From a virus (lineage: Duplodnaviria > Caudoviricetes), in IMG/VR virus record IMGVR_UViG_3300032360_000014, positions 1 through 50,380 of that record: DNA of 50,380 nucleotides; one strand, given 5' to 3'. The position numbers were made by a program, and so were the translations under genes. The notes beneath the pieces are model-generated. The model was not told the DNA's origin. It searched no databases and saw only the letters and a program-made list of their open reading frames with translations. The number at the start of each line of letters is the position of its first letter. Positions within the stretch are counted from its first letter, which is position 1. Of the stretch, positions 852-25,830 are shown in pieces.

Positions 852-1265
852 TTAACTCATTTTTCTTTGCAAGCTTGAATTGTTTCGAAACAAGCGCACA
901 GAAGAGATCACAACGCCTTCTAGCTGAAAGTTATCGCATTCGCCAATGCTTACCGGGGCGTAAATCGAAGAGGCTGATCTCAAAACCCGATGCTGAATAT
1001 CTAGCAGTTTACACACAAATTCATTGTTGTAATTGGCAACGATCACATCATTTTGTTGTGGCATTACCGCTCTATCAACCACCAGTACATCGCCATCAAA
1101 AATGCCAACGCCTTGCATCGAATCACCAGCGGCCAGACCAACAAACGTGGCGCTTGGGTGTTTAATTAACAACTGATCTAGTGTTAGCTTAAGCTCTTTG
1201 TATTCAGAAGCCGGAGACTCAAAACCAGTAATACCGGCTTGCGCCTTAATAGGAATAACTTTCAT
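852..1265 (-). CDS. umuD: UmuD-like S24 peptidase (standalone, no umuC)
   Basis: GFESPA cleavage region, GDSM catalytic Ser, FVCK catalytic Lys, IFDGDVLVVDR. Confidence 0.9.
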   Translation of the reverse strand: MKVIPIKAQAGITGFESPASEYKELKLTLDQLLIKHPSATFVGLAAGDSMQGVGIFDGDVLVVDRAVMPQQNDVIVANYNNEFVCKLLDIQHRVLRSASSIYAPVSIGECDNFQLEGVVISSVRLFRNNSSLQRKMS

Positions 1266-1299: not shown

Positions 1300-1421
1300 T
1301 ATAAATGAGTTGTAAGTGCTTTGCTATTGTGGGTTTGTCACTCGTGTCTTTTCAATATGGCCCATTTTTAAAGGGCTGGCGCGAAATTTTAAAAAAAAGT
1401 TAAAAAAGATTAATAAATAAC

Positions 1422-1450
1422 TTGCTTTTGTTCGCGATTGCGAACATAAT
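1422..1450 (+). promoter_or_regulatory. acr promoter with Aca2 operator (IR1)
   Basis: -35 TTGCTT (1422-1427), 17 bp spacer, -10 CATAAT (1445-1450); perfect inverted repeat TGTTCGC-GATT-GCGAACA (1429-1446) between them. Confidence 0.85.
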
Positions 1451-1460
1451 TTAACTCGAA

Positions 1461-1495
1461 GCTTACGCAATAGTGCGAAGCAACTCTAAAGAGAG
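1461..1495 (+). promoter_or_regulatory. 5' UTR stem-loops (IR2 and RBS hairpin) of the acr mRNA
   Basis: GCTT-a-CGCA-atag-TGCG-AAGC (1461-1481) and CTCT-aaag-AGAG (1484-1495) over the RBS; Aca2 is known to also bind leader RNA hairpins. Confidence 0.6.
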
Positions 1496-1502
1496 ATTCA
1501 AA

Positions 1503-1895
1503 ATGACTACATCTAATGCATTTGAACAAGCTAAAAAGTTCTACACAGACAATAAAGAAGTGCTCTTAAACGTGATGCTTGAAGAGTTCACCGGCTCTAT
1601 TGACTTCCAAGAAGAATACAATCAAGTAGCTGTATGGTTTGATGGCTTCGTTATTTGCTTTCAAGATAGCGATATGAACGGAGACGGAAAAGGTAAGGCG
1701 CACTGGGATAATGAAGGTGCAAATTCTGGGCTTGATGATTTGCTCGATATTTTAAAGCTGGATGAGAGATTTTCTCTGCTAGTTGCTAGCGATGAGTATT
1801 GGGAAAATGAGTATTTGAGAACTCTAATTAATGATTTCTGTTCTAAATACGCAGAAATAAACGATATAGAGTCAATGTTTTCAAACGAAGAGTAA
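1503..1895 (+). CDS. Candidate anti-CRISPR/anti-defence protein (130 aa, very acidic)
   Basis: Small D/E-rich ORF directly between an Aca2-operator promoter and aca2; ATG 1503 follows a GAGAG RBS. Confidence 0.75.
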   Translation: MTTSNAFEQAKKFYTDNKEVLLNVMLEEFTGSIDFQEEYNQVAVWFDGFVICFQDSDMNGDGKGKAHWDNEGANSGLDDLLDILKLDERFSLLVASDEYWENEYLRTLINDFCSKYAEINDIESMFSNEE

Positions 1896-1904
1896 TTATA
1901 TTTT

Positions 1905-1923
1905 AGCGGCTAAGGCCGCTTTT
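1905..1923 (+). terminator. Weak intrinsic terminator between acr and aca2
   Basis: AGCGGC-TAAG-GCCGCT followed by a short T run. Confidence 0.6.
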
Positions 1924-1936
1924 ATATGGAGTTTTT

Positions 1937-2425
1937 ATGAGTTGGTCAAAACTAAACAACTTTGAATTGCAGGCGTTGCGTAAATTACTGTGTCTTGATG
2001 TAAGCGAAGCGGCTGAGTTCGTTGGTAAAGTAGCTAATAGAACGTGGCAGTACTGGGAATCTGGCCGCAGCCAAGTGCCAGTAGATATTGATTCTACGAT
2101 GTATGGTTTACTGTCACAAAGAAACCAAGTGATCACTGAAATATTGTTAGAAACGCATGAGAAAGGCTGCGTGGGAGTTTTAAAGTGGTATCACACATTT
2201 GATGCTTTTGCTGTTGATTACCCGCATTGCACAAAGCTTATGTGGCGCTTACACCAGAGCGTGTTGGCGCATTTCTTTGCTGAGGGTGGCGAAGTTGGCT
2301 TAGAAGCTGATATACCGGTCAATAAAGAGTCATATATTTATAAATGGTTCAATGGCTTAACAGAGCAGCAAATTGAAGATGCCAAGGACGAAGAAATATT
2401 TAGAAAAAAAGGGATTATTGATTAA
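1937..2425 (+). CDS. aca2: Aca2/YdiL (DUF1870) HTH regulator, anti-CRISPR-associated
   Basis: ELQALRKLLCLDVSEAAEFVGKV..RTWQYWESGRSQVP and WRLHQSVLA closely match phage Aca2 proteins as I recall them. Confidence 0.88.
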   Translation: MSWSKLNNFELQALRKLLCLDVSEAAEFVGKVANRTWQYWESGRSQVPVDIDSTMYGLLSQRNQVITEILLETHEKGCVGVLKWYHTFDAFAVDYPHCTKLMWRLHQSVLAHFFAEGGEVGLEADIPVNKESYIYKWFNGLTEQQIEDAKDEEIFRKKGIID

Positions 2426-2564
2426 GTTATGGCAGGAATTGAAAGCGACTACTCGGGCTGTCGCTTTCACGTGCTTACTGTTCTTCACTTAGTTGGTACA
2501 GTAAAACGCGGTCGTAATAACGAAATAAGTTGCATTAATAGCGCCTTTTTTATGGGCTGAGTTA

Positions 2565-2843
2565 TTATTGCTCGTCATTGATACCTAGAAATTCACCCAG
2601 CGTCATGTCTCGCAATTCTGGGTATTTCTCAACAAACAACCCTAAAAAATCAAGCCCCGGATTGCCTCGCCCTACCCTTATTCTGTTTGTAAACGCGTTC
2701 AGTTCGCTTTGACTCGTAGGCTCTCGGTCATAGAGCTGTTTGAACAAGTCTCGATTGCTGCCTTGCCCTTTTAAGCTGATTAATATTTTCAAGCCCGCTT
2801 CAATGTGCTGCCTGTTTATTTCTGTCTTTGCCATTTTATGCAT
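2565..2843 (-). CDS. Small helical DNA-binding protein (probable repressor), divergent from operator array
   Basis: HTH-like helical pattern; transcribed away from the 4-operator array at 2885-2976. Confidence 0.6.
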   Translation of the reverse strand: MHKMAKTEINRQHIEAGLKILISLKGQGSNRDLFKQLYDREPTSQSELNAFTNRIRVGRGNPGLDFLGLFVEKYPELRDMTLGEFLGINDEQ

Positions 2844-2990: not shown

Positions 2991-3320
2991 ATGGCCGTTC
3001 GCTCTACAGTTTCAGCAGACATTTCTAAACACATAATTTGGATCAATTCGACTGATTTTAAATCGACAATCAGGGTCGTAAAAATCCACCGCATATTAAT
3101 GAGAGATTGGGGTTATGAAGACGGGTTTATGATTGAAGAGCACAGTAGGGGTCAGGGTATCTGCCTGACGGTTACTGACTTTAATACCATTAAAGAAATG
3201 CGTGAGCATTACGCATACGCCAAGGAAGATGAAAAAACAGAACCAACGACGCCAGAGGATATAGCCAAAGCTAGAGAGTATTACAGCCTTTACTTTGATG
3301 ATTTGGACGAAGTGGCTTAG
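2991..3320 (+). CDS. Hypothetical protein (109 aa, acidic C-terminus)
   Basis: AAGGA RBS; first gene behind operator array 1. Confidence 0.8.
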   Translation: MAVRSTVSADISKHIIWINSTDFKSTIRVVKIHRILMRDWGYEDGFMIEEHSRGQGICLTVTDFNTIKEMREHYAYAKEDEKTEPTTPEDIAKAREYYSLYFDDLDEVA

Positions 3321-3364
3321 CCACTTCATTTTTAACTCGGTTAAAATTTATTTTGGGTGTCAAT

Positions 3365-5497
3365 ATGTGGAAAATTAAAGCAAACGGTCATAATCATATA
3401 TGTGCAGATGCGTTGGTGGCTAAGCTCAATGATGTTGCGGTGTCTAATGATGAAAAGGCGCAGGCATTCAGTGAGCTTAGCTTAAAGCAAGTGGTACTTG
3501 AAGCGGCTAATGGCTTTGATATGCGTAGTCATGTGCGGGCAATATCAGAGCAAGCTATCGGCAGGATGCAAGCGCTGTTGTTAAAGGGCCACCCGCTTTT
3601 GGTGTCGATCTCTTGGGGTAAAGATTCAACGGTCTGTTTGGTGTTGCTGCTTGAAGCAATGAGGCGCATACAAGACGCGGGTATGACGTTACCTAAATGT
3701 TATGCAATAAATTCTAACACCGAGTTAGAAAACCCAGCGCTAGAAGACTATTTCGAGTGGATGCAAAATAACTTAACTGTTTTTGCGTCTAGTAATAATT
3801 TACCGCTTGAGTTTTTGCAAGCGACCCCGCCGATCACCTCAAGCTTTTTTTATACTACCATCGGGCGCGGAAAACTGCCGCGCTATCCAGGTATGAAGCG
3901 TGATTGTAGTGTTGACTGGAAAATAAACCCGATCATCAAAGTTAAGAAGTCTTTGCCTGTCACCGACATGACTAAAATATCGGTGGTTGGTACGCGTATC
4001 AATGAATCAGAGGAGCGTAAAAAGCGCATGTCTGAACGCGGTGATAACGCCATTGATATTTTAACGAATGATGATGGCGATGAATATATCACTCCAATTG
4101 CTGATTGGGAGTTAGAGGACGTGTGGGGGTTGCTGGCTTACTGTGACCAACGAACTGAGCGCACGCTATACCGCACATTTGTAAATAACTTTGATGAATG
4201 TATCGAGATTTACAAAGATGCAAACGCGGGCGAGTGTGTGGCTGCGCTGGGTGACAAAGATTTAAATGGCGCAGCGTGTGGCGCGCGGTTTGGTTGTTGG
4301 AATTGCGTTGCATCAGGTGAACAGGATAAATCAATGCAATCTATGATTGCCAGTAATCCAGATAAATATGGTCATCTTGCGCCTGTTGCTAAGCTGCGCG
4401 ATTGGATTTATTCACTTAGATTTGATTTAAAGCGACGTACATGGCTCGGCCGTAGCTATGACAAAGAAACCAAGTACATTGTATTGCACCCTGATTATTT
4501 GGATTTTTACACCCGCCGTGACTTATTGCGTTATATGTTGACCATTCAAGCCGAGGAAAACGAATGGGCCAATGAGCATAATGAAGAAATTGTGCGGTTT
4601 AACCTATTCAAGTTCAAACACATTATTGCCATTGATTTTATGTGGTCAATGTACTGCGATGCCCCGCACGCTTTTAGCGCTTTGCATGAGTATTATCAAA
4701 TTATGTATTTAGGCAGGCGCTACCCTTTGCCAGAAGTTATTTATCAGCCAGCAAAAACGAGCGTGCCACCAAAGCGCTGGTTTAAGTTACCAGAGGGGTC
4801 GGTCGTGCCTTGGACTGGTATTGCTGGTCTAAATGACCCCTACGAGATACACATTGGCAAAAAAATACGCGGTAACGCCGAGCCTACTTACATCAAAGAT
4901 CGTACCACAGGAGAGCAAAAGGAAATCATTCCGTTTGATGTAGCACCTGCAATGGAGGTCGATATTATCGAGGCTTGCACAATGATAAGTCGTTATTGTG
5001 AAACTAAAATGGCGATTGAAACCACGGGGAGCACGGCAATTGAAGGCGCAATGTATTATCTTAATATGGGTATTATCAAGCTGGGTCGAGCGCAAGCCTC
5101 GGGTTTAGATGAAATGCTACAGAAAGCACAGTTTTGGAGTCAATTAAGAGATAAGTTAAATTTACTGAATGTAGAAAAGTACGCGCTAGATAACAGTATC
5201 AGCGACGAAGAACACACCGCCTTAAAACAGCATAGCCGCAATGTCATTCCGATTAAAATGGTTGAGGAATTAGTCGACTCTAAAATCAAACCAGTCGCGG
5301 CAGATGTAAGCAAAAGTCACGCTGCTAAAGGTGCATACGTCACGCATAAAATCAGAACAGAAAAAACAGCATTAAAAATCCAAGCCGCGATAGCGCAGAT
5401 AAAACGAAAAGGCGAACCAATCACGCGCACTGCTGTTGCTCAAATAGTTGGTATATCGAGAGAGCAAATATCAAGACGATATAATCACTGCTTTTAA
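3365..5497 (+). CDS. DndC-like PAPS reductase/PP-loop family protein with C-terminal HTH
   Basis: SWGKDS PP-loop, RDCSVDWKINP, GTRINES, PIADW, CGARFGCWNC cluster motif; C-terminal ITRTAVAQIVGISREQISRRY HTH. Confidence 0.85.
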   Translation: MWKIKANGHNHICADALVAKLNDVAVSNDEKAQAFSELSLKQVVLEAANGFDMRSHVRAISEQAIGRMQALLLKGHPLLVSISWGKDSTVCLVLLLEAMRRIQDAGMTLPKCYAINSNTELENPALEDYFEWMQNNLTVFASSNNLPLEFLQATPPITSSFFYTTIGRGKLPRYPGMKRDCSVDWKINPIIKVKKSLPVTDMTKISVVGTRINESEERKKRMSERGDNAIDILTNDDGDEYITPIADWELEDVWGLLAYCDQRTERTLYRTFVNNFDECIEIYKDANAGECVAALGDKDLNGAACGARFGCWNCVASGEQDKSMQSMIASNPDKYGHLAPVAKLRDWIYSLRFDLKRRTWLGRSYDKETKYIVLHPDYLDFYTRRDLLRYMLTIQAEENEWANEHNEEIVRFNLFKFKHIIAIDFMWSMYCDAPHAFSALHEYYQIMYLGRRYPLPEVIYQPAKTSVPPKRWFKLPEGSVVPWTGIAGLNDPYEIHIGKKIRGNAEPTYIKDRTTGEQKEIIPFDVAPAMEVDIIEACTMISRYCETKMAIETTGSTAIEGAMYYLNMGIIKLGRAQASGLDEMLQKAQFWSQLRDKLNLLNVEKYALDNSISDEEHTALKQHSRNVIPIKMVEELVDSKIKPVAADVSKSHAAKGAYVTHKIRTEKTALKIQAAIAQIKRKGEPITRTAVAQIVGISREQISRRYNHCF

Positions 5498-5529
5498 TCT
5501 TTAGCGGGCGCAAATGCACCCAAGCAAGT

Positions 5530-5623
5530 TAAGTCAAAAAAGATTTTATATTAATTCAAAAAAGACTTTTAATTAAGTCTTAAATGAATTAACATCACCC
5601 TAAGATAAGTCGAAAATGACTTG
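5530..5623. promoter_or_regulatory. Operator array 2: four TAAGTC-N6-GACTTA-like sites
   Basis: Sites start at 5530, 5552, 5574 and 5606; same order and near-identical spacing as array 1. Confidence 0.8.
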
Positions 5624-5651: not shown

Positions 5652-7097
5652 ATGCTCTTACCAAATGAAATAGTGGTCGATAACTTTGCCGGGGGCGGCG
5701 GTGCGTCAACTGGCCTTGAGCTGGGGCTTAATCGTCATGTTGATATTGCGATTAATCATGACCCTGCGGCCATTGATATGCACAAGAAAAACCACCCAGA
5801 GACAAAGCACTATTGTGAATCAGTGTGGGACGTTAATCCGGTTGATGTATGTGCGGGTCGTCCTGTTGGTTTGGGGTGGTTTTCACCAGACTGCAAGCAT
5901 TTCTCTAAAGCTAAAGGCAATCGCCCCGTTGATAAGAATATACGCGGTTTAGCATGGGTTGTGGCACGTTGGGCGGCATTGGTGCCAATGCGTGTGTTTA
6001 TGCTTGAGAACGTAGAAGAGTTTTTGACGTGGGGGCCCGTGGTGGAGGTTTCACCTGGTAAATTTAAGCCATGCCCCGAGCGAAAAGGTGAAACGTTCGA
6101 AGGCTTTAAAAAGGCGCTCTCAACGGGCTTAGAATTAAGCCACCCAGCATGGAAGGAAATTTATCAAAGCTTATTCAGAGCGAATTTTAATTTAAAAGAA
6201 AAGCTGACCATTTTTAAACGATTAAAGGCGGGCTTAGGCTATGACTTAGAGCATCGCATTTTGTCTGCCTGTGATTTTGGCGTACCTACAACGCGCAAGC
6301 GCTTGTTCATGGTGGGTCGAAATGATGGCAAGCCGGTTGTTTGGCCTTCGCCTACGCACGGCCCAGCGGGCAGTGGTTTAGCATCGTACAAAACCGCCGC
6401 TGACATTATTGATTGGTCTATTCCTGTGCGCTCTATCTTTGGTCGCAAACGCCCATTGGCTGACGCCACAATGCGCCGTATTGCTAAGGGGATCGAGAAA
6501 TTTGTTAATTCAGATAAGGCGTATATTGTGCCGCAAAATAAAGTGGTGCCATTTATCACTGAACACGCCAATGCATCGAGCCAGCGTAATATGGATGCAA
6601 ACGAGCCTCTGCGTACCATTTGCGCGCAAGTTAAAGGTGGTCACTTTGCACTTGTGACCAGTCACATAGTTAAATTACGTGGTGATAACGTGGGTCATCG
6701 CACCGACGAGCCACTGCATACTATTTCAGCCGGTGGTAATCATCTTGGCGAAGTGCAGGCTTTCTTAGTGAAATATTACGGCACAAGTGACGCACAAGCG
6801 GCAAATGATCCATTAGGTACTGTTACGACTAAAGATAGATTCGGGCTTGTGACTATCAAGGGCGACAAATATCAAATTGTTGATATCGGCCTCAGAATGC
6901 TAGAGCCTCACGAGTTGTTCGCAGCAATGGGGTTTCCTGAGTATTACGAAATCGCCACAGACACGAATGGTAAAAAGAATACTAAAGCTAATCAAGTTTC
7001 CCGTTGTGGCAATGCCGTATGCCCGCCATTAGCGCAAGCATTGGTTGTGGCGAATATGGACGAAGACAATCAATTTAACCGCCGCATAGCGGCTTAA
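5652..7097 (+). CDS. dcm: C5 cytosine DNA methyltransferase (orphan)
   Basis: FAGGGG (motif I), SPDC (catalytic Cys, motif IV), ENV (VI), TTRKRLF (VIII), GNAVCP (X). Confidence 0.95.
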   Translation: MLLPNEIVVDNFAGGGGASTGLELGLNRHVDIAINHDPAAIDMHKKNHPETKHYCESVWDVNPVDVCAGRPVGLGWFSPDCKHFSKAKGNRPVDKNIRGLAWVVARWAALVPMRVFMLENVEEFLTWGPVVEVSPGKFKPCPERKGETFEGFKKALSTGLELSHPAWKEIYQSLFRANFNLKEKLTIFKRLKAGLGYDLEHRILSACDFGVPTTRKRLFMVGRNDGKPVVWPSPTHGPAGSGLASYKTAADIIDWSIPVRSIFGRKRPLADATMRRIAKGIEKFVNSDKAYIVPQNKVVPFITEHANASSQRNMDANEPLRTICAQVKGGHFALVTSHIVKLRGDNVGHRTDEPLHTISAGGNHLGEVQAFLVKYYGTSDAQAANDPLGTVTTKDRFGLVTIKGDKYQIVDIGLRMLEPHELFAAMGFPEYYEIATDTNGKKNTKANQVSRCGNAVCPPLAQALVVANMDEDNQFNRRIAA

Positions 7098-10028: not shown

Positions 10029-10472
10029 GGTGTAGTGCAAACGGGAAACCCTTTTTAAGCTTGATGTAGAGCAATAGTTATGGGAATCAGCTTAAGTTCA
10101 CGGTGGCATTTTGGTCAATTGGGTGTAGTGCAAACGGGAGGCCCTTTTTAAGCTTGATGTAGAGCAATAGTTATGGGAATCAGCTTAAGTTCACGGTGGC
10201 ATTTTGGTCAATTGGGTGTAGTGCAAACGGGAAAGACCATTTTAAGCTTGCTGTAGAGCAATCGCTATGGGAATCAGCTTAAGTTCACGGTGGCCTTTTG
10301 GTCAATTGGGTGTAGTGCAAACGGGAAACCCTTTTTAAACTTTATGTAAAAATCATAGCTATGGGAATCAGCTTAAGTTCACGGTGGCATTTTGGTCAGT
10401 TGGGTGTAGTGCAAACGGGATGCCCCTTTTAAACTTTATGTAAAGCAATCGCTATGGGAAACACCTTAAGTT
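10029..10472. repeat. About 4.7 tandem 93-94 bp repeats, each containing one Rep iteron (copy-control/incompatibility array)
   Basis: Units start at 10029, 10122, 10215, 10309 and 10403; the four full units carry TATGGGAATCAGCTTAAGTT, the reverse complement of the origin iteron, and the fifth a variant. Confidence 0.9.
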
Positions 10473-11179
10473 TCATCTACGATTGAAAATACAAACTTTT
10501 CAACCTTTGAGCCTTGAAAAGTCGTTGAGCAAGCCACTTTAAGTGGGGTTTCTTTGTTGATCCGATTAATAGCCGGTTCAATAAAGCTGCGCTTCATTTC
10601 TGCTGCATTTTCTTTTTGTGAGTCTGGTAATTGGTAGCGTTCAGCAAGCCACTGTGGTGTTACAGTCCAAATGCCGGTATTGCGCCATTGGCACAAGTTT
10701 TCGTATAACCTAATCGTTCTGCTATTCTTTATGGTCCCGCATTCGTGCAAATAAAATTTTGTGAATTGTTGTGTCAAACCAACAATGTAAGGCAATAAAC
10801 GGGGGTTAAAATCAACGCGGTACGACCCTCTCCCTACTCGTGTTGATTGTTCTATTAACCAGGGGCGTACGGTTTCTTCAAACTCGCCTTCCTTGGGGTA
10901 AAACTTTACTGTGCTTTTAAGGATTTCTTCTAAACCCTTTTTAACGTCTGTCGAAGCTGTTTGCACACTAACAGAAAATAAATTTTGATAATCTGATACA
11001 TGCACATCAAATTGACCATTTGAAATGTCTATGTGTTCGTCTGTCACGGTATCTTTTATTTGCGAAAAACACATCCAAAGTACACGTTTAGCTTTTAAAG
11101 AGAGGTAATAAGCCGCTTCGCTGATCTCGTTCGATTGAGTAACTAGGTTCTTTTTATTCTTCTTAGCAAGTTTGGTCAT
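10466..11179 (-). CDS. repB: Rep_3/RepB family plasmid replication initiator
   Basis: LVTQSNEISEAAYYLSL, FNPRLLPYI, FTKF, TIRLYENLCQW, FIEPAINRIN; start placed at MTKLAKK (track start 11212 lies in the operator). Confidence 0.92.
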   Translation of the reverse strand: MTKLAKKNKKNLVTQSNEISEAAYYLSLKAKRVLWMCFSQIKDTVTDEHIDISNGQFDVHVSDYQNLFSVSVQTASTDVKKGLEEILKSTVKFYPKEGEFEETVRPWLIEQSTRVGRGSYRVDFNPRLLPYIVGLTQQFTKFYLHECGTIKNSRTIRLYENLCQWRNTGIWTVTPQWLAERYQLPDSQKENAAEMKRSFIEPAINRINKETPLKVACSTTFQGSKVEKFVFSIVDET

Positions 11180-11187
11180 GGGCGAAC

Positions 11188-11213
11188 TATGGGAGTATTT
11201 AATTATACCCATA
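11188..11213. promoter_or_regulatory. Inverted half-iteron operator (Rep autorepression)
   Basis: TATGGG-N14-CCCATA just upstream of the rep start, built from the iteron core. Confidence 0.6.
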
Positions 11214-11245: not shown

Positions 11246-11461
11246 AACTTAAGCTGATTCCCATAGTAACTTAAGCTGATCCCCATACTTACTTAAGCAA
11301 ATTCCCATAGGAAGTTAATGTGATCCCCATAGTAACTTAAGGTAATTCCCATGTGCTTGCTCTACAGCCCTTTATATATAAGGCTTTGCGTGAGTCTAAA
11401 AAGGTTTAAAAGGTATAAAAGATATAAAAGTTTTAAAAATACTTTGTGGATATGTGGATAA
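11246..11461. other. Iteron origin of replication (5 iterons, AT-rich repeats, DnaA boxes)
   Basis: AACTTAAGCTGATTCCCATAG-like iterons at 11246, 11268, 11290, 11312 and 11334 (22 bp period); AAAAGGTAT-like 9-mers at about 11399-11443; TGTGGATAT/TGTGGATAA at 11445-11461. Confidence 0.92.
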
Positions 11462-14858: not shown

Positions 14859-15128
14859 TTATATTTTACCCATCATTACTTCACCAATGGCTTTAGATAA
14901 GGCTTTGTCACTACTTGTTTCTGCAAGTTTAATGCATGCCCTTATAAGCTTGGTTCTGTCTAAGTTATTAAATTCAGGTTTCCATTTTTCTACCATATTA
15001 TCGATCTTTTTTATTTCAGAAGGGTAAAGCCTGATAGGTGTTACTTTGGCTCTTTCTGACTCTTTTGCTTTCTCAACAATTGAGTGTTCTTTTGTTGGGT
15101 TATTGACTCTATTTCCTAGCCTGCTCAT
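14859..15128 (-). CDS. Ribbon-helix-helix partition adaptor (type Ib ParB/ParG-like)
   Basis: Overlaps the parA stop; flexible N-tail, beta-strand VTPIRL, then two helices (DRTKLIRACI). Confidence 0.75.
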   Translation of the reverse strand: MSRLGNRVNNPTKEHSIVEKAKESERAKVTPIRLYPSEIKKIDNMVEKWKPEFNNLDRTKLIRACIKLAETSSDKALSKAIGEVMMGKI

Positions 15129-15937
15129 TGTGCTTTACCTGTTATTGCTGGGTGGTTTATTAATTCATTAGCAAGCGCCTTGTAGTTCGCTGCTGCAATC
15201 GACCCTTTTGATTTATGCAAAACGCTAACTTTCTCAATTTCCGCATTTGCTACTTGTTGGTCTTTACTTATTTTTGTTTTCAACAGGTATTCGGACACAT
15301 GCTTCATTTCATTTTCTAAGTGCGCATTTATTATCTTATTACCCTTTCCATACTCATTTCTGAATATGCCCATGGGAGCATTTTCGCCGTCTTTTATTTC
15401 TTCAATTAAATCTAGTAAGTCGGCTATGCCATCTGCGGAGTAAGTTGAACCATCAATAGGCACTAAGATAAAGTCGGACACTAGAATTGAATTTATGGTC
15501 CCCAGCCCTACATCTGGTGGGCAATCTATTATGACGAAATCAAATGAGTTATCTAATTTTTTAAGGTGTTTGGAGAATATCTTTTCTCTGTGCACAGTTG
15601 AGATTTTCTCTTCATATACTTTTTGTAAGGTCGGGTGACTTGAAATTAAGAATAAGTTGTCAACGTTTTTATCCCCCATGATAACGGGTTGTATTAGCGC
15701 GTTTATGTTTGCGGTTCTGTCTCTGAGTAACTTTATAATTGTTTCGTCTTGGGTCAATTCGTAAGGCGGTGTTTTCCCTAATGTCTCACTAGAGTTTGCT
15801 TGTCTATCAGCATCAATCACAAGGACTTTATTCCCTTTCATTGATAACGCATGGCTTAGGTTTACAGTTGTTGATGTTTTACCACATCCACCCTTTTGAT
15901 TTACTACTGTTATTATTACAGCCTTACAATCAGTCAT
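15125..15937 (-). CDS. parA: ParA Walker-type partition ATPase
   Basis: NQKGGCGKTST deviant Walker A, VLVIDADRQ, IIDCPP. Confidence 0.95.
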   Translation of the reverse strand: MTDCKAVIITVVNQKGGCGKTSTTVNLSHALSMKGNKVLVIDADRQANSSETLGKTPPYELTQDETIIKLLRDRTANINALIQPVIMGDKNVDNLFLISSHPTLQKVYEEKISTVHREKIFSKHLKKLDNSFDFVIIDCPPDVGLGTINSILVSDFILVPIDGSTYSADGIADLLDLIEEIKDGENAPMGIFRNEYGKGNKIINAHLENEMKHVSEYLLKTKISKDQQVANAEIEKVSVLHKSKGSIAAANYKALANELINHPAITGKAQ

Positions 15938-17784: not shown

Positions 17785-18429
17785 TTATGCCTGTTGTAAT
17801 TGTTTGTTTAATGCTGTTTGAAGCGCGGCTTGGCCACGCGCAAAAAGATGGTCTTTGCGTATATGCGTATATTGCGTTGGTTGGCCTAGCATGCTGGGGT
17901 TAAATTCTATTAAGCACATGGGCTTATTGAGTTCGTGTTTGCTTTCTTGGCCTGTTTTTGCATCAACGAACTTAATACCGCCGCTGCACCATTTTTTGTA
18001 TGCAGTGTCTTTTTTTGGCCCCGATGCATACACTTTGTCGGTGTAGTAACCCACGATGTCGATCACTTTCACGCCAAGGCCCGCGACCCACCACTGTGCG
18101 CGGTTTTCACGGGGGACAAATAGGGTGGTTGTAAAGCCTTTTTCTTGTTCTTCTAAGCATTTTTGTTTCCATGGCAAAATGTCGCTAAACGGCGGATTTA
18201 ACCAGCCGGTTGGCTTTTGTATATGTGCTAGGTCGTTGCGCCAATTTTGTTTTAGCGCGTCTATTTCTGGGGTGTAGTATCGGCTGCAATGTGCGCTTTG
18301 TGGCAGTGCGGCAAGGTCAATGTCGTAATGATATAGCGAATTAAACGCGGCAAATAGCCAGGGGGGAGTTTGTGTTAAGTCGCGGTATGCTTTGTCGGTT
18401 GTGCTTTTGTGATTGCTGGGCTCTGCCAT
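17785..18429 (-). CDS. dam: Phage N6-adenine DNA methyltransferase (phage Dam family)
   Basis: QTPPWLF, DIDLAA, YYTPEIDALKQNW, WLNPPFS; start at MAEPS with AGGA RBS. Confidence 0.88.
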   Translation of the reverse strand: MAEPSNHKSTTDKAYRDLTQTPPWLFAAFNSLYHYDIDLAALPQSAHCSRYYTPEIDALKQNWRNDLAHIQKPTGWLNPPFSDILPWKQKCLEEQEKGFTTTLFVPRENRAQWWVAGLGVKVIDIVGYYTDKVYASGPKKDTAYKKWCSGGIKFVDAKTGQESKHELNKPMCLIEFNPSMLGQPTQYTHIRKDHLFARGQAALQTALNKQLQQA

Positions 18430-18458
18430 TGTTAAGTCCTGTGATAAATTATAAATAA

Positions 18459-18473
18459 ATCTCAATTTGTGAT
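18459..18473. promoter_or_regulatory. ATCAC-N5-GTGAT-type operator upstream of dam
   Basis: ATCTCAATTTGTGAT, exact reverse complement of the site at 23817-23831. Confidence 0.65.
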
Positions 18474-18504
18474 AGTTGAGGGCGAAAAAAAAGCACATTA
18501 ATGC

Positions 18505-19125
18505 TTAGTTTTCTGCCCATGTGAAATGGCCAACGAGTTTGCCGATCACCTTTATATTTGCAAATTCTTGCTCAGTCAGCGCTAAATCTCGGTAATCTGC
18601 GTTTGTTGCAATGAGTGTGTATGTGTTATCAAACTCTTTGCGAACGCGTCTAAGTGTTGCTTGCCCGTCTTTTTCTATTAAGTAGACCGACTCAGTATTA
18701 ATTTGCTTTTTGTTGGTATCAATCACGGCGGTGCTGCTTTGCGGAATGTGTGGGCACATTGCTGCGTCTGTTACTTTATGCTCAATCAAAGAGTTTGGTT
18801 TGCAGTTTTTGTCTGCTAAGCGTTCGCGATTGATGGCTAATTCGCTATTCGTATTTAGTGCGTGATGAAGTGTGTCGCCGTTAATTTCGTGCGTTACACC
18901 CACAAGCCACTCAAAAGGCACATTTAATGTTTCGGCAATAAGCTGAATTTTATCAATCGCTGGCGTACGCTCAGCTTGCTCGATCATGCTGATGCTATTT
19001 TGTGCCAAGCCGACGATCTTGGCAAATTCACCCTGTTTTAAACCAAGTTCTTTACGATGCGAATTGATTCGTTGACCTAAAATTTTTGCGCGCGATATTT
19101 TTGGGCTTTTTTTGGCCTGTGTCAT
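18505..19125 (-). CDS. cI: CI-like repressor (XRE HTH plus degenerate S24 domain)
   Basis: LGLKQGEFAKIVGLAQNSISMIE HTH; S24-like C-terminal domain with DAAM in place of GDSM and TLRR in place of TxKR. Confidence 0.88.
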   Translation of the reverse strand: MTQAKKSPKISRAKILGQRINSHRKELGLKQGEFAKIVGLAQNSISMIEQAERTPAIDKIQLIAETLNVPFEWLVGVTHEINGDTLHHALNTNSELAINRERLADKNCKPNSLIEHKVTDAAMCPHIPQSSTAVIDTNKKQINTESVYLIEKDGQATLRRVRKEFDNTYTLIATNADYRDLALTEQEFANIKVIGKLVGHFTWAEN

Positions 19126-19160
19126 TTCTCTGTTTCCGCCGTGCTTTATAGCGTTAGAGT

Positions 19161-19238
19161 AACACAAAATGTGCTAAATAATAGAATAAATCTAATTTTT
19201 ATCGCCGAATGTGATTTTAATTTATCACTTAAAGTGAT
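19161..19238. promoter_or_regulatory. Lysis-lysogeny switch operators (three ATCAC-N5-GTGAT-like sites)
   Basis: AACACAAAATGTGCT 19161, ATCGCCGAATGTGAT 19201, ATCACTTAAAGTGAT 19224, between divergent cI and cro. Confidence 0.75.
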
Positions 19239-19916: not shown

Positions 19917-20297
19917 ATGCCAGGTTCTTTAGACGAGCAATTAGAGCTATGGGCGCGCTGGGTCGTCGGTGGGGAGCAATTGCAAGCATCATCTATTATG
20001 CAAAAAATCATGGATGGCAAAGCGTTTGAAGGAACAGGGGGAGCCGCACAGCCGCTTATTCAGTGCTGTGAGTCAGAGATTGAAGCCTTTTTACTTTCGA
20101 AGGTGGGCAAAGAACAACAGGCCGTTGAAATTCTGCGGGTTGAGTGTGGGGTGAAGCGTTTAGGTGCGCTGCCGCTTGATGCGAGTCAGTCAACGCGGGC
20201 GCTGAGAATGGGGATCAGCTTGCGAACATATCGCCGCAAATTAAGTGGCTTAAAAGGGCAGCTAAAACAGCATTTGCAAGGACGGGGATTTTTATGA
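19917..20297 (+). CDS. Q-like antiterminator/late regulator
   Basis: LELWARW N-terminal motif and C-terminal HTH (ALRMGISLRTYRRKL). Confidence 0.7.
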   Translation: MPGSLDEQLELWARWVVGGEQLQASSIMQKIMDGKAFEGTGGAAQPLIQCCESEIEAFLLSKVGKEQQAVEILRVECGVKRLGALPLDASQSTRALRMGISLRTYRRKLSGLKGQLKQHLQGRGFL

Positions 20298-20440
20298 ATA
20301 CGAAAAATAAAGAGGGTAAAAAGCCCAAAAGAATGAGCCGTCATTATACCGAGCTGAGGCGAAAAAGGGAGGCTGAACGCGATTTAAAAAGCGCGGTTGA
20401 TCAGTTTGATATGACGCATCCTGATTATTTCAATCAATAG
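20294..20440 (+). CDS. Small basic protein (48 aa, not in ORF track)
   Basis: ATGA overlap with the Q-like gene; MNTKNKEGKKPKR... Confidence 0.5.
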   Translation: MNTKNKEGKKPKRMSRHYTELRRKREAERDLKSAVDQFDMTHPDYFNQ

Positions 20441-20474
20441 TTATCCACAGATTTTGTTAAGAAGCGGTGATTAA

Positions 20475-21698
20475 GTGGCGACAAAAAAAATAAAGATCTC
20501 TGACGCAGTGATCAAGGCGCAGCTAAAAAACAACGAGATAACGAGGCTTAGAGATACTCGTTACCCACTTTATTTGCGCTTTCATAAAAACCGAACGGGC
20601 GGTACTTGGTATTTAAGAGGCTTGGCGCAGGGTAAAGAATGGCATGTGCTTGCACAGTGGCCCGCTGTGCCCAGCGCGACGGTGTTAAAAGATATACCTG
20701 CATTATTACTACGCTTTGCTTTTGATGATCCAATTGTGACCGATAATTTTGAAACCTTTGGTCAGCTTTTAAAGTGGTATCTTGAACGTAGCCAAAGTGA
20801 TGCGTCTTTGTCAGATGACAGAAAGCGCACTGTGAAATCATTACTTAGTAAACACTTGATCCCAGCATTGAACGATATTCCCTTAATTGAGTTTAAAAAA
20901 TCAGCATTAGAAAACGTATTGCTCTGGCCGCTGCAGGAAAGTTATACAGCGAGTACAGTTCGTCAGATATTCCAGCTATTAAAACGAGCCCTGTCTCAAG
21001 CGGTAAAATCGGGTAAGTTAAATCATGATCCGCTTGCGGGAATTAGGTTCGGAGACATTATTGACGCCCTAATATCTCCTAAGCCTTCAAAAATAAAAAA
21101 ATCAGATGAACCTTTGATCGCAAGCCATGTATTGGGGTCGTCATCTTTACTGTGTCAATTAATGTTATTACACGGTACCCGCATCGGTGAGACCAGAAAG
21201 TCACAGTGGTCATTTATAGACTCTAATCATAAAACTTTGACGCTACCGGCGACGATCACTAAAACCAAACAACACGTTATTTATCTCAGTGATTACGCCT
21301 TTAATTTGCTGATCCAAGCCCATCAAAATCAGGTTAAAAGTGGTTACAGAGGGGACTTAATGTTTCCGAGTTCTAAAGGCCGCACTTGTATAGATCAGAA
21401 CACTGCCAACGACTTGGTACATGAGATAAGCAAAGGCGCTTATACATCGCATGACTTTCGCAAGCTTTGCCGCGTTCGCTGGCTAGAACTAGGCATTGAT
21501 TCAATGGTTGCTGAGTTGATGCTCAATCATGAGCTAACCCCAGTCCAAAAAACCTATGTTGAGTCGCTTGGGCTTAACGTGGGCGCTGAACGTAGACAGG
21601 CCGCTTGGCAGCTTTGGGCGGACCATTTACAAGCGCAGAAATTAGCGTTTGAGAATGAGACCCAGCCGAGATTGTATGATTTTTCGTGTGGTGCTTAA
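20475..21698 (+). CDS. Tyrosine recombinase/integrase
   Basis: Arm-binding-like N-terminus; GTRIGE (R), TKT (K), HDFRK (HxxR), LNH, KTY (Y). Confidence 0.9.
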   Translation: MATKKIKISDAVIKAQLKNNEITRLRDTRYPLYLRFHKNRTGGTWYLRGLAQGKEWHVLAQWPAVPSATVLKDIPALLLRFAFDDPIVTDNFETFGQLLKWYLERSQSDASLSDDRKRTVKSLLSKHLIPALNDIPLIEFKKSALENVLLWPLQESYTASTVRQIFQLLKRALSQAVKSGKLNHDPLAGIRFGDIIDALISPKPSKIKKSDEPLIASHVLGSSSLLCQLMLLHGTRIGETRKSQWSFIDSNHKTLTLPATITKTKQHVIYLSDYAFNLLIQAHQNQVKSGYRGDLMFPSSKGRTCIDQNTANDLVHEISKGAYTSHDFRKLCRVRWLELGIDSMVAELMLNHELTPVQKTYVESLGLNVGAERRQAAWQLWADHLQAQKLAFENETQPRLYDFSCGA

Positions 21699-21731
21699 GC
21701 AGCGCTATATATGGCTTTTGGCTGTTTTTAA

Positions 21732-21914
21732 ATGTTTTACATAGAGGAAAATATTTTTATGGTATTTACGAGTGGTTTTAGTTTGTTTGTAACCCTTGGC
21801 GCACTGGTTTTTTTAATGCTGGGTATGTTTACGCTGGGGTGTTACGTCTGTTCTGGCAGTGGTGTTAGCGGCTTAAAAATGGCCCAACGTTGGCGTCATG
21901 GGTTGGCTGAATAA
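21732..21914 (+). CDS. Small membrane protein
   Basis: Hydrophobic helix; GAGG RBS before the internal MVF start. Confidence 0.45.
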   Translation: MFYIEENIFMVFTSGFSLFVTLGALVFLMLGMFTLGCYVCSGSGVSGLKMAQRWRHGLAE

Positions 21915-22203
21915 GGGGTGTAGAGTGTCTTTGATTTATAAAGGTTTTAATGTGCACCAAATGCTTAATTATATAGACGAATATTGTACCAGTGTATCAC
22001 TGATTGGCTCAGGCGGTGGTTGGGTTTTGGTTGTTCATAGTGAGGATTTTGGGCGAGAAGAGTATAGGGGGGCACTAGGTTTTATTGTTATGCAGGCATT
22101 TCGGCCATTCTTGGATAGAGCCAAGCGAGACCGCAATAATTTTTTATTGAATCTTGGGTTGGATTGCCCATCGACTGATAAGTCTAATCGAATGTTTTTG
22201 TAG
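21898..22203 (+). CDS. Hypothetical protein
   Basis: Co-oriented ORF; start uncertain. Confidence 0.55.
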   Translation: MGWLNKGCRVSLIYKGFNVHQMLNYIDEYCTSVSLIGSGGGWVLVVHSEDFGREEYRGALGFIVMQAFRPFLDRAKRDRNNFLLNLGLDCPSTDKSNRMFL

Positions 22204-22294
22204 TGTGGCCGCAGTTATCAAGCTAAGAAGTGGTGGGTCAAAGCCTGGTGTCGTGTCAAATGGCCAACAGTTAATTTGAACCTAAAAATTATAT

Positions 22295-22531
22295 TTGAAT
22301 ACGAGGATAATTTACATGCGCACACCTGCACCAAGAGCGCCGACAAGGCATTGTAGGGCAAAGCTATCCGAAGAAGTGTATGCGACAACTCACGGGAATA
22401 TTTCGCTTTATATTTCTACGAACAAACGGTGGTGGCAATTTTGGAAGCCTGCGGAAATTACAGTTATTGTGAGCGCTACAGTTAATCGTGATCTTGGTGT
22501 TTCTCTATCACCAAAATCAATAAATTTTTAG
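22295..22531 (+). CDS. Hypothetical protein
   Basis: GAGG RBS before the internal MRTP start; KRWWQFWK motif common in phage proteins. Confidence 0.55.
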   Translation: MNTRIIYMRTPAPRAPTRHCRAKLSEEVYATTHGNISLYISTNKRWWQFWKPAEITVIVSATVNRDLGVSLSPKSINF

Positions 22532-22546
22532 CATTGGAATACGAGA

Positions 22547-22876
22547 ATGAGCGACGTTATAGATTTTACAGCTAAAGCAAAAGAAACGGTCATGACTCCC
22601 GTAAAGTCTTATAGTCGTGGCTGCTCTCATACAGCAATCACACTAGATGAACACCGCAGGCAAATTGAGTGTCAAGATTGCGGGAAAGTATTTGAGGCGT
22701 TTGATTACCTGTTTGCTTGGGCTAATGGCCAGCAGCGAATAGTTTGGCATTTAAGAAGTGTTGAGAATGAAGTTAAGCAGTTGGAAGAGAAAGTTGAAGA
22801 GCTGAAGCGAGTAAAAAGCAATCTTCAAGCTCAAGTTCGCAAACTAAAAAGTAAAGTTTCAATATCTGGAGAGTAG
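22547..22876 (+). CDS. Zinc-ribbon plus coiled-coil protein
   Basis: CSH...ECQDCG followed by heptad repeats. Confidence 0.75.
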   Translation: MSDVIDFTAKAKETVMTPVKSYSRGCSHTAITLDEHRRQIECQDCGKVFEAFDYLFAWANGQQRIVWHLRSVENEVKQLEEKVEELKRVKSNLQAQVRKLKSKVSISGE

Positions 22877-22880
22877 GTAA

Positions 22881-23138
22881 GTGATGAGTAATATAGTAAC
22901 GGCAATGACGTTGGATATTAAATCATGCAGGCATAGATTTAGTTACGAGGGTTTTAATTTTGCTTACAACACAGCCAAAGAGTTGGCTCAGCTAATGTAC
23001 ACCAACTGTGAAAATGTAAAAAACCCGTACGAGCCAGATAGCTCAGATTATGAAGATTTCAACGAGACGGTGTATTCATTGCAAAGTAAGCTATTAATTG
23101 GCGAGCTATTAATTGGCGAGGAAGATTGGCCCATATAA
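22881..23138 (+). CDS. Hypothetical protein sharing an NPYE-x-DS-x-x-Y-x-DF motif with 574-840
   Basis: NPYEPDSSDYEDF versus NPYEIDSAEYNDF. Confidence 0.6.
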   Translation: MMSNIVTAMTLDIKSCRHRFSYEGFNFAYNTAKELAQLMYTNCENVKNPYEPDSSDYEDFNETVYSLQSKLLIGELLIGEEDWPI

Positions 23139-23221
23139 ACAAGGGGAGGCTTTTAAAATTGAAAAGGGTGTTTTGCGCCGCGCGCATAACTGGTATTCGA
23201 TTTATCGGAAGGGTGATAAAA

Positions 23222-23479
23222 ATGAAATTGTTACACAAAGGTCAGCAAAGCGCAGTTCGGCTCGCGGCGTTGATAAAGTTAAGTGGTATAACGAGTGACG
23301 AGATTATCGGGGCATTGGAGGATTATTTAGTAAAAGGTATGAGAAAAACAGTGGCCGCGCGTTTAAATCAGGTTCCACCAGGTAATTTAACGCGGGCGCT
23401 AGATGCTTTAGAAGTGGTTGCCGCTGAGGTTGAAGTTATTAAAGAGGACGACTGGGCCCGAAATAGGGGGGTTGTATGA
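23222..23479 (+). CDS. PapB/FocB-like regulator
   Basis: LIKLSGITSDEIIGALEDYLVKG...AARLNQV fits the PapB family pattern. Confidence 0.75.
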   Translation: MKLLHKGQQSAVRLAALIKLSGITSDEIIGALEDYLVKGMRKTVAARLNQVPPGNLTRALDALEVVAAEVEVIKEDDWARNRGVV

Positions 23480-23817
23480 ATGCTGTGTCAAGTGACCCTA
23501 GCACCTTGTTTGTTGAGCGCATTAACAAAGGTGAGCAGCATGTGGGCTATATACTTAAAAGCCCTCGGGGGGATTATGTTGTTGTTAACGCAGACGAGTG
23601 TGTAAACATTAAAAAGCGGCACTTTGATGCGTTTGTTGAAAGCCAAGGGCAGACACAAATGGCGACGGTGAATGTTGTGATTGGTGAGTTGTGCACTACA
23701 AGGCAGATTAAAAAGGCTGCATTGCGTTGGCGTGAATTGGCATGGTATCAGCGTATTTTGCGGTGTGTTTTTTACCGTGATCCGCTGGGTATTAATGATT
23801 TTTTATCGTCAAAATAA
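23476..23817 (+). CDS. Hypothetical protein
   Basis: ATGA overlap, GGGGG RBS. Confidence 0.7.
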   Translation: MNAVSSDPSTLFVERINKGEQHVGYILKSPRGDYVVVNADECVNIKKRHFDAFVESQGQTQMATVNVVIGELCTTRQIKKAALRWRELAWYQRILRCVFYRDPLGINDFLSSK

Positions 23818-23886
23818 TCACAAATTGAGATTATTTTAAATAAAATCACTTTTTGTGTTGCAATTTTTGGCAGCTTGCTCTATTGT
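23817..23886 (+). promoter_or_regulatory. Late (PR'-like) promoter with two repressor-type operators
   Basis: TTGCAA (23858)-17 bp-TATTGT (23881); ATCAC-N5-GAGAT at 23817 and ATCAC-N5-GTGTT at 23845. Confidence 0.65.
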
Positions 23887-23944
23887 TTTGCGTATGGTGG
23901 GTTTGTTACGTCCACTTGCAGTTTCCTTTCCCAATTTGTATTAG

Positions 23945-23974
23945 AGGCCCTTAGCGTTTTAAGGGCCTTTTTTT
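23945..23974 (+). terminator. tR'-like terminator before the lysis genes
   Basis: AGGCCCTTA-N6-TAAGGGCCT plus T run. Confidence 0.85.
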
Positions 23975-23989
23975 ATTTAAGAGCCTGTC

Positions 23990-24433
23990 ATGATGAATTT
24001 GATCGCAATGATAAAACGTCATGAGCAGTTTATTGCGACTGAATGCTTGACTGATTTTGCGTTGTTTGGCTTTGGTCATCGCCCTGACGAATACCCCACT
24101 TTAAAAGAATTACAGCGTGATTTGAGCTTAAACCCGCTTAGCGAAGAAGAGGCCGAGCAGCAGTTGGCCGCAGATTTGATGTATTTGTTTGAGCGGCTTC
24201 ACGCCAAAATTCCGATTGAAAAATTTAGCTACGAGCGCCAGCAAGCAGTGATAGCAATTGCGTATTGGTTGGGCCGTGATGTTTTTAACGACTCAGTGTT
24301 TTTGACGCGGGCGTTATGCAATTTTGATTTTGAAGTTGCAGCGCGCTGCGTGTTAAACCATTGGCCACAGTGGCGCGCAGAAGTGTACGCCGCCCAGCTT
24401 TTTACTGGAGAATATAATGCAACTAACTATTAA
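23990..24433 (+). CDS. Lysozyme-like (GH24-like) protein, apparently degenerate
   Basis: MIKRHE...GFGH...SEEEAEQQL..DL...RQQAVI; the Asp/Thr of the catalytic triad are not evident. Confidence 0.6.
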   Translation: MMNLIAMIKRHEQFIATECLTDFALFGFGHRPDEYPTLKELQRDLSLNPLSEEEAEQQLAADLMYLFERLHAKIPIEKFSYERQQAVIAIAYWLGRDVFNDSVFLTRALCNFDFEVAARCVLNHWPQWRAEVYAAQLFTGEYNATNY

Positions 24434-25628: not shown

Positions 25629-25635
25629 AGCATTA

Positions 25636-25770: not shown

Positions 25771-25830
25771 GCCTTATATTTAAAGTGTATTCAAAGAGTA
25801 TTTTTTAAATATGTGTTGAATAAAGAAAGG

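Follow-up and report, generated by a model that had tools for sequence, protein, structure and literature searches.

An acr-aca2-type operon of a temperate Pseudoalteromonas phage with a candidate anti-CRISPR protein of a new family

The viral record IMGVR_UViG_3300032360_000014, analysed here over its whole length of 50,380 bases (the window), contains at positions 1422-2425 a two-gene operon. An acidic open reading frame (ORF) of 130 amino acids, called ORF130 in the following, stands first, and aca2, the gene of a known autorepressor, stands second. We interpret this stretch as an acr-aca2-type operon carried by a marine, temperate phage of Pseudoalteromonas and lean towards ORF130 representing a new family of anti-CRISPR proteins (Acrs), directed most probably against CRISPR-Cas of type I-F. 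The case for type I-F specificity is circumstantial, drawn from the type I-F targeting of the phage and of elements that carry the cassette; as an Acr, too, ORF130 is a candidate. A preliminary description of this DNA had arrived at a new Acr or another anti-defence family; the mobility of the cassette, the type I-F targeting of the phage and the existence of self-targeting carriers support that view and make ORF130 a strong candidate.

The aca2 gene and the control region of the operon

The second gene (aca2, 1937-2425, plus strand) encodes a helix-turn-helix (HTH) autorepressor of 162 amino acids. Its product matches PF08965 (Aca2_YdiL, DUF1870) over residues 6-120 with an E-value of 1e-27 and 97.1 bits against a cut-off of 23.8, and the solved Aca2 chains 8w35, 7vjo, 7b5j and 7ezy over residues 5-119 with E-values from 8e-26 to 2e-22. 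The preliminary description had named aca2 as the second gene, and judged by its sequence the downstream gene is Aca2 beyond doubt.

Homologues of ORF130 were found in 17 distinct loci besides the window, two further entries being duplicates (L032 of L007, L038 of L001). One locus, L029, stops right after the gene, and with the window included the downstream side is readable in 17 loci. Linkage of the homologues to aca genes was seen in five of these 17, where aca2 lies directly downstream: the window, L001 (P. luteoviolacea, 88% identity to ORF130), L028 (60%), L002 (a Parashewanella metagenome-assembled genome (MAG), 50%) and L005 (a viral contig, 46%, with a neighbouring gene that we take by eye to be Mor-like, a label unchecked by any tool). 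The range of identity given for the aca2-linked homologues is 36-88%. Aca2 of the window is extended at its C-terminus by about 45 residues (roughly residues 118-162 of the protein, window 2282-2425), a part that has no counterpart in the solved Aca2 proteins of 115-125 amino acids. This extension is conserved in the Aca2 proteins of L001 (576-1094, 172 amino acids) and L002 (6596-7081, 161 amino acids), and it is missing from those of L005 and L028, which measure 118 amino acids.

Upstream of the operon lies a stretch of 37 nt almost without G or C (1384-1421, plus strand, by direct reading), which is possibly an UP element. It is followed on the same strand by a -35 hexamer, TTGCTT (1422-1427), and, 17 nt further on, by a -10 hexamer, CATAAT (1445-1450). 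A perfect 18-bp palindrome, TGTTCGC-GATT-GCGAACA (1429-1446, plus strand), begins after the -35 hexamer and overlaps the -10 hexamer. We predict it to be the Aca2 operator, of the type of inverted repeat 1 (IR1); its core, TTCG-CGATTG-CGAA with a spacer of six nucleotides (TTCGCGATTGCGAA), lies at 1431-1444. An operator of the form GTTCGC/GGTCGC-N4-GCGAAC/GCGACC occupies the interval between -35 and -10 in all five aca2-linked loci, and TTGC or TTGA is kept at the -35 position across them. The window has a single TTCG-N6-CGAA where 0.56 are expected, which chance alone could give. The weight of the operator therefore comes from its position and its conservation, and its rarity gives none. A second Aca2 operator was not found in the window, where three further matches with one or two mismatches fit chance (four found versus 2.1 expected).

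These elements can be compared with the acrIF8-aca2 operon of the Pectobacterium phage ZF40. According to the accessible text of its description, the ZF40 promoter consists of a -35 hexamer TTGCTT, 17 nt and TATAAT and is strong by experiment. Two inverted repeats share the core TTCG, IR1 with N6 over the promoter and IR2 with N8 in the 5' untranslated region (5'UTR) (Birkholz et al. 2019, PMC6765145). The present operon resembles it in having the candidate acr gene first and aca2 second, in TTGCTT-N17, in an IR1 TTCG-N6-CGAA over the promoter and in a second, less symmetric N8 repeat in the 5'UTR that is predicted to fold as a hairpin; its Aca2 matches the solved Aca2 chains at about 1e-25. 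Since -35 hexamer, spacing, N6 operator and N8 leader repeat all agree with ZF40, the finding is, on its regulatory side, a textbook Aca2 case. The two operons differ in their first gene, which is unrelated: ORF130 had no tblastn match among 50,697 GenBank phage records (the inclusion of ZF40 among these being unchecked), and the solved AcrIF8 chains, if part of the Protein Data Bank (PDB) set searched, gave ORF130 no match. They differ also in the 162-residue Aca2 with its roughly 45 additional C-terminal residues and, as far as ZF40 is described in the accessible text of PMC6765145, in a conserved terminator-like hairpin that separates ORF130 and aca2 here.

Two hairpins are predicted in the leader on the plus strand. 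Hairpin 1 (GCTTACGCA-ATAG-TGCGAAGC, 1461-1481) carries half-sites of the form TT(A)CG-N8-CGAA and corresponds to IR2, the RNA site of Aca2. Hairpin 2 (CTCT-AAAG-AGAG, 1484-1495) covers the Shine-Dalgarno-like AGAGAG. The leader fold has a minimum free energy of -11.7 kcal/mol and a z-score of -1.92, with 8 of 200 shuffles folding equally well. Both hairpins are predicted in all five aca2-linked loci, and the small hairpin over the Shine-Dalgarno sequence arises in each of the five when they are folded singly. Across the five sequences, pairing in hairpin 1 extends to 36 of 40 cells, and two of its pairs show compensatory changes; the four unpaired cells belong to two loci in which the upper stem adopts a different register. 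Binding of Aca2 to 5'UTR hairpins is described in the accessible text of PMC13551039. Between the two genes, a GC hairpin followed by a T run, AGCGGC-TAAG-GCCGCT (1905-1924, hairpin 1905-1920, plus strand), is terminator-like and stands on the list of the terminator scan. It recurs between the ORF130 homologue and aca2 in all five aca2-linked loci, with 30 of 30 cells paired and two compensatory pairs. These hairpin counts rest on five sequences only. An Rfam scan of 1200-2600 returned nothing relevant; the published 'proteo-motif' covariance model is not part of Rfam.

The preliminary description had noted a palindrome between -35 and -10, leader hairpins and a weak terminator after ORF130, and all three are borne out: the palindrome is present and perfect, the hairpins are conserved in five loci, and the hairpin with its T run was picked up by the terminator scan. 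Its mention of a strong promoter holds in part. By consensus it does not, as 8 of 12 positions of the hexamers at 1422-1450 match and the site is absent from the list of that same scan; in its favour stand the same -35 hexamer and N17 spacing as in the experimentally strong ZF40 promoter (PMC6765145, accessible text).

ORF130, its family and the mobility of the cassette

ORF130 (1503-1895, plus strand), the anti-CRISPR candidate, begins at the ATG of 1503; a GTG at 1473 was rejected as start because the homologues all begin at the equivalent residue. The protein has an isoelectric point of 4.05 and a net charge of -20, with 29 aspartate and glutamate against 9 lysine and arginine residues, so that the acidic 130-residue product named in the preliminary description is confirmed. 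Net charges computed for ten family proteins range from -8 to -21, all of them acidic. A word-indexed search returned ten ORF130 clusters at 90% identity, none of them named by any source. An exhaustive HMMER search gave 32 representatives at an E-value up to 0.001 and, after the removal of two, about 30 clusters at 50% identity. The two removed, P0025 (18 stretches) and P0040, are giant acidic repeat proteins by sequence and were dropped as compositional matches; we take them by eye, with no family scan behind the labels, to be cadherin/VCBS-like and PEGA-like. The family is small and is located in phage or prophage DNA. Among 140 Pseudoalteromonas genomes the gene was found in one only, P. 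luteoviolacea MMG020 (G001).

Residues 52-73 form a near-invariant stretch, C-[YF]-Q-x-[SG]-D-M-N-G-x-x-K-G-x-x-H-[WY]-x-N-x-G-A, which is conserved down to about 30% identity. Six members (P0013, P0020, P0022, P0024, P0028 and P0030) are longer, at 188-234 amino acids, with extra N- or C-terminal regions that have no Pfam match; the core domain of the family is reused in these fusions.

No similarity to a named family was detected. ORF130 gave zero matches in Pfam, PHROGs, NCBIfam and PADLOC, and a Pfam scan of all 36 family members, the six fused forms included, yielded nothing usable (one YhdB match at an E-value of 0.009). Against 177,635 distinct PDB sequences nothing fell under an E-value of 0.08 by sequence or 0.89 by profile, and tblastn against the phage records mentioned above and 72,556 plasmid records gave zero matches at E-values up to 1. 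For those Acr families that have a name and either a solved structure or a curated model (AcrIF1-14, AcrIF24 and others), PDB, Pfam, NCBIfam and PHROGs gave no likeness, in keeping with the earlier remark that the ORF is unlike AcrIF6, AcrIF8, AcrIF9 and AcrIF10. The novelty of ORF130, a candidate new family, is thus judged on Pfam, PHROGs, NCBIfam, PADLOC, PDB and the phage and plasmid records; Anti-CRISPRdb and dbAPIS lay outside the comparison.

An AlphaFold2 model of ORF130 from a ten-row alignment is confident, with a predicted local distance difference test score of 86.5 and a predicted template modelling (TM) score of 0.82. The model shows a long helix at the N-terminus, a sheet of three strands, four C-terminal helices and, at lower confidence, the conserved loop. 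Foldseek with this model gave zero matches in PDB and BFVD at an E-value of 0.001 or below. VIA-align against 48,161 chains gave a top Z of 4.6, a value under 8 being possibly due to chance according to the tool. The ESM Atlas had no usable match by features and, by structure, TM scores of 0.37 or lower. At rank 10 of the VIA-align result stood chain 6anw_A of AcrIF10, an acidic, DNA-mimicking type I-F Acr of a Shewanella prophage whose gene adjoins aca2. With a Z of 3.9 (within noise), a root-mean-square deviation of 4.5 Å, 87 of 96 residues aligned and 6% identity, this predicted superposition is only a lead. ORF130 shares with AcrIF10 its small size and acidity, and differs from it in length (130 versus 96-97 residues) and in lacking a sequence or profile match to PDB chains. 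Small, acidic and without a match to a known domain or fold, ORF130 has properties that are typical of Acrs.

ORF130 lies on a mobile element, a complete phage record, directly upstream of an aca gene. By blastn, window positions 1392-2432 are the sole DNA that the window has in common with contig C50 of P. luteoviolacea MMG020 and with contig C36 of a Parashewanella MAG (G002). When 24 window proteins were compared by tblastn, C50 matched ORF130, aca2 and umuD only, and C36 matched ORF130, aca2, a tail-J-like protein (24% identity) and, weakly, ParA. With nearly nothing else common to the window and these contigs, the cassette behaves as a mobile accessory module. A gene for a UmuD-like S24 peptidase (852-1265, minus strand) adjoins the cassette and has a counterpart of 57% identity in L001 (2534-2947, minus strand); it lies on opposite sides of the cassette in the window and in G001 and may travel with the module.

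Type I-F targeting, self-targeting carriers and the phage genome

The phage is targeted by a type I-F system of a related genome. In Pseudoalteromonas genome G318, two arrays whose repeat is GTTCACTGCCGCACAGGCAGCTTAGAAA flank the genes cas1, cas2/3, cas8f, cas7f and cas6f (locus L108, C27:838298-850978). Out of 35 spacers there, eight match the window: five are perfect, two have a single mismatch and one has two. A 5'-CC protospacer adjacent motif (PAM) is present in eight of eight cases. CC is the PAM of type I-F systems. The protospacer sites lie at 24235-24266, 24706-24737, 26751-26782, 38164-38195, 40375-40414, 41296-41327 and 41924-41955. These matches fix the host genus and tell of repeated encounters of the phage with CRISPR immunity. 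The genus is Pseudoalteromonas, the same as that of G001, and window positions 20001-40000 have related prophage segments, with up to 77% identity, in 9 of 140 Pseudoalteromonas genomes.

Self-targeting spacers in hosts, which the preliminary description had advised to look for, were found in G001 (type I-F) and, with the caveats discussed below, in G002. G001 is the isolate P. luteoviolacea MMG020, with a cassette 88% identical to that of the window. Its type I-F cas genes are uninterrupted ORFs (Cas1 337, Cas2/3 1120, Cas8f 500, Cas5f 392, Cas7f 329 and Cas6f 211 amino acids), and two arrays hold 50 repeats and 20 or more repeats. Seven spacers target the genome that encodes them. Five are perfect matches, CC being the PAM of four, and the other two combine a single mismatch with CC. 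Contig C40 takes six of the seven; it is a prophage with genes for the tail and for a C5 methyltransferase, and it carries a 66%-identical homologue of window ORF 2565-2843. Exactly one gene of the Aca2 family occurs in G001, right after the ORF130 homologue. G001 is a carrier that tolerates self-targeting with an apparently intact CRISPR-Cas system. In G002, 6 of the 33 spacers of a type I-F array match contig C36, which bears the ORF130 homologue; four are perfect, five of the six protospacers are flanked by CC, and one imperfect match falls inside aca2. As a yardstick, Cas7f turned up in 44 of a sample of 301 genomes of the order. When the L001 homologue was modelled in complex with G001's Cas8f and Cas7f, each of the three supplied as an alignment, the prediction scored 0.01 against a mark of 0.32 and counts neither way.

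The record is a complete viral record with a direct terminal repeat of 127 nt (1-127 = 50254-50380), so that position 1 of the window is arbitrary. PHROG scans show the window to be a temperate phage with a tail and with maintenance genes like those of plasmids. They assigned a large terminase (27758-29503), a portal, a major head protein, a tape measure and a tail J-like protein, together with a CI-like repressor (18505-19167), an integrase (20475-21698), a ParA-like protein (15125-15937) and a replication initiator (10466-11212, minus strand) flanked by repeats of 93-94 nt and 22 nt. These are five tandem repeats of 93-94 nt and four iteron-like repeats of 22 nt (10043-10472 and 11246-11352) that share the motif GGGAATCAGCTTAAGTT in opposite orientations. 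The repeats around the initiator and ParA suggest a phage-plasmid lifestyle beside the integrase.

Downstream of the operon by 1-3 kb lie a DndC-like 3'-phosphoadenosine 5'-phosphosulfate (PAPS) reductase (3353-5497; TIGR03183 at an E-value of 1.5e-36, under the cut-off of that model) and a C5 methyltransferase (5652-7097). We count them in favour of ORF130 as a counter-defence neighbourhood, and such genes, in this case PAPS reductases, occur near Aca-regulated operons according to the accessible text of PMC13551039. In all, the phage encodes three DNA methyltransferases (5652-7097, 17785-18498 and 25961-26719), which bespeaks a heavy investment against restriction. Repeated A/T-rich units of 22 nt, AAGTCAAAAA(A/T)GA-like, occupy two intergenic regions (2891-2941 and 5515-5609), where they precede ORF 2991-3320 and the C5 methyltransferase, respectively. 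A common regulator, such as the 92-amino-acid ORF 2565-2843 (minus strand), may use them as operators.

Weighing the candidate, its alternatives and its mechanism

A number of observations weigh against ORF130 as a type I-F Acr. Self-targeting in G001 only means that some inhibitor or defect exists; the cause is left unspecified, and other Acrs, linked to other aca families or to none, are possible. That the G001 cassette sits on the self-targeted prophage is inference only: it lies at the very start of C50, a contig that is otherwise chromosomal (RecR, HtpG and others), no sequence overlap was seen between C50 and the start of C40, and 0 of 69 G001 spacers match C50 or the window. In G002, cas2/3 beside the self-targeting array (L019 14967-17707, contig C41) reads in three frames with two apparent frameshifts, one of them at a T5 run, and cas7f of the other type I-F locus (C1:290492-291476) is interrupted by a TGA; these defects are either decay under self-targeting or indel errors of long reads. 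The same genome has a second aca2 locus (L107, contig C38, 2-710, minus strand) behind a different ORF of 83 amino acids (459-710). This ORF had zero matches among PDB sequences; it is a possible further Acr candidate and hence a confounder of the self-targeting argument in G002. G303, a MAG of 2.2 Mb with a fused family member, showed no Cas7f. That loop 52-73 stays conserved at identities as low as 30% is unusual in a binder acting by stoichiometry alone and evolving fast, and the genes under Aca control include non-Acr anti-defence genes (PMC13551039, accessible text).

The genomic contexts add to this list. In 12 of the 17 readable loci aca2 is absent, and seven of these 12 have no recognisable regulator downstream. 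The other five have a sub-threshold ribbon-helix-helix (RHH) ORF, a sub-threshold HTH_3 ORF and a Rha protein in one locus each and unassigned ORFs of 55-60 amino acids in two. Other Aca families were considered as neighbours and set aside: the Pfam matches to RHH (L004, E-value 3.5e-4) and HTH_3 (L039, 22.3 bits versus a cut-off of 23) are sub-threshold and a third neighbour is a Rha protein (L030), for which reason we claim no linkage to other Aca families. Ten further neighbour genes in the aca2-less loci had nothing in Pfam. Judged from the upstream sequences, the gene also comes first behind a promoter-like site in other loci, where the leader contains palindromes or hairpins.

The main rival explanation keeps ORF130 as a counter-defence protein under Aca2 control and gives it a target outside CRISPR-Cas, for example as a DNA mimic against restriction-modification, bacteriophage exclusion (BREX) or Dnd. 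Ocr and ArdA, the models for such a role, are strongly acidic small early proteins of phages or mobile genetic elements that counter restriction by mimicking DNA. We rate this explanation as rather unlikely. The net charge of -20 would suit it, as would the DndC-like PAPS reductase and C5 methyltransferase nearby. It is rendered plausible by the PAPS reductase, the three methyltransferases and the non-Acr genes under Aca control, for the genes regulated by Aca1 or Aca2 include many non-Acr candidates, fewer than half of 450 being annotated (PMC13551039, accessible text). Yet ORF130 showed no fold or sequence likeness to solved proteins, Ocr and ArdA types included (E-values up to 10; Z of 5 or more), and, unlike Ocr and ArdA, it stands behind an Aca2-type operator. 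The association that was found is one of type I-F targeting and self-targeting, and the named genes of aca2 operons in the accessible texts are type I-F Acrs, AcrIF9 and AcrIF8 (PMC13551039, PMC6765145).

A role in defence evasion might be absent altogether, with ORF130 an early phage or moron gene of host takeover, superinfection exclusion or lysogeny regulation and the Aca2/YdiL-like repressor next to it incidental. Aca2-like regulators do occur in varied biological contexts (PMC8434428, accessible text), the 12 loci without aca2 would be accounted for, and the polar loop, conserved as it is, could serve as an enzymatic or metal-binding site with no bearing on defence. We nevertheless find this improbable: the operator and the leader are specifically those of acr-aca2 operons, the cassette travels as one piece between elements without relationship to each other, its carriers have self-targeting spacers of type I-F, and the promoter-like site with leader palindromes or hairpins is repeated in other loci too. 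Still smaller is the chance that ORF130 belongs to an already named Acr family (e.g. AcrIF15-24, AcrIE or AcrIC) that has neither a solved structure nor a Pfam or NCBIfam model. The window is an IMG/VR record and may fall within the RefSeq and IMG/VR protein clusters of PMC13551039, as far as its accessible text describes them; against membership stand the searches reported above, in which Pfam, NCBIfam, PHROGs and PADLOC had no match for the query, none of the 36 members matched usably in Pfam, PDB, phage and plasmid sets were silent, and none of the ten clusters was named. The literature on Aca2, anti-CRISPR and Pseudoalteromonas brought up an unrelated vibriophage only; that search matched by words and was blind to other protein names.

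For ORF130 as a type I-F Acr we propose the following course of events. The sequence elements and how well they are conserved, Aca2's identity and the type I-F association come from this analysis, and the action of Aca2 from the ZF40 papers; the attenuator role and every step that concerns the target of ORF130 we infer. On entry of the DNA the sigma-70 promoter (TTGCTT-N17-CATAAT, with the A/T-rich stretch in front) would fire, and ORF130 would be made first and in excess. The conserved GC hairpin with its U run would end part of the transcripts after ORF130 and, as a putative attenuator, keep Aca2 below ORF130. As Aca2 rises, its dimer would bind the TTCG-N6-CGAA palindrome over the promoter and switch transcription off. 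By analogy with ZF40, it would also bind both leader hairpins, of which hairpin 1 would offer the half-sites of the operator and hairpin 2 would cover the Shine-Dalgarno sequence, and would thereby block the ribosome binding site. ORF130 itself would act as a stoichiometric inhibitor of the type I-F machinery, either of Cascade (Cas8f/Cas5f/Cas7f) or of Cas2/3. Because of its charge (net -20) it would most likely sit on a positively charged DNA- or RNA-binding surface of one of these, perhaps as a DNA mimic, and loop residues 52-73 would be the likely contact site and the best candidate for a functional site.

The unusual conservation of this loop leaves room for an enzymatic mode. In a bolder version, to which we give little credence, ORF130 would be an Acr of new fold whose loop 52-73 is catalytic or metal-binding, inactivating type I-F systems sub-stoichiometrically like the enzymatic Acrs. 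In the same version, the intergenic hairpin would form a third, undescribed layer of acr-aca2 control, in which attenuation fixes a high ratio of Acr to Aca2 beyond promoter and translational repression.

Already known are acr-aca2 operons, their control by Aca2 at both DNA and RNA, and many unannotated Aca-regulated genes. Hundreds of the latter, from RefSeq and IMG/VR, have been proposed as anti-defence candidates in 2026 (PMC13551039, accessible text). ORF130 resembles these Aca1- and Aca2-regulated genes in being unannotated, in lying directly downstream of combined Aca2 DNA and RNA motifs and in coming from an IMG/VR record. In the accessible main text of PMC13551039 the ORF130 family is unnamed. 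Measured against that main text, the ORF130 family, its new fold, the type I-F link and the conserved terminator-like hairpin are new here, and the evidence from type I-F targeting and self-targeting, which comes from the present analysis, goes beyond that catalogue.

The finding leaves the concepts of the field unchanged; it brings a well-supported candidate and no conceptual surprise. The terminator-like hairpin between the genes suggests an extra layer in the well-studied Aca2 circuit. In P. luteoviolacea MMG020, intact type I-F cas ORFs occur together with several spacers that target the genome itself perfectly and with one aca2 operon only, which makes the isolate a natural test bed for ORF130; G318 is a related immune genome with eight spacers against the phage. 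New Acr folds have repeatedly exposed new weak points in Cas complexes and have served as off-switches. If ORF130 does inhibit type I-F systems, a structurally new family of inhibitors from marine Alteromonadales phages would join the Acr repertoire.

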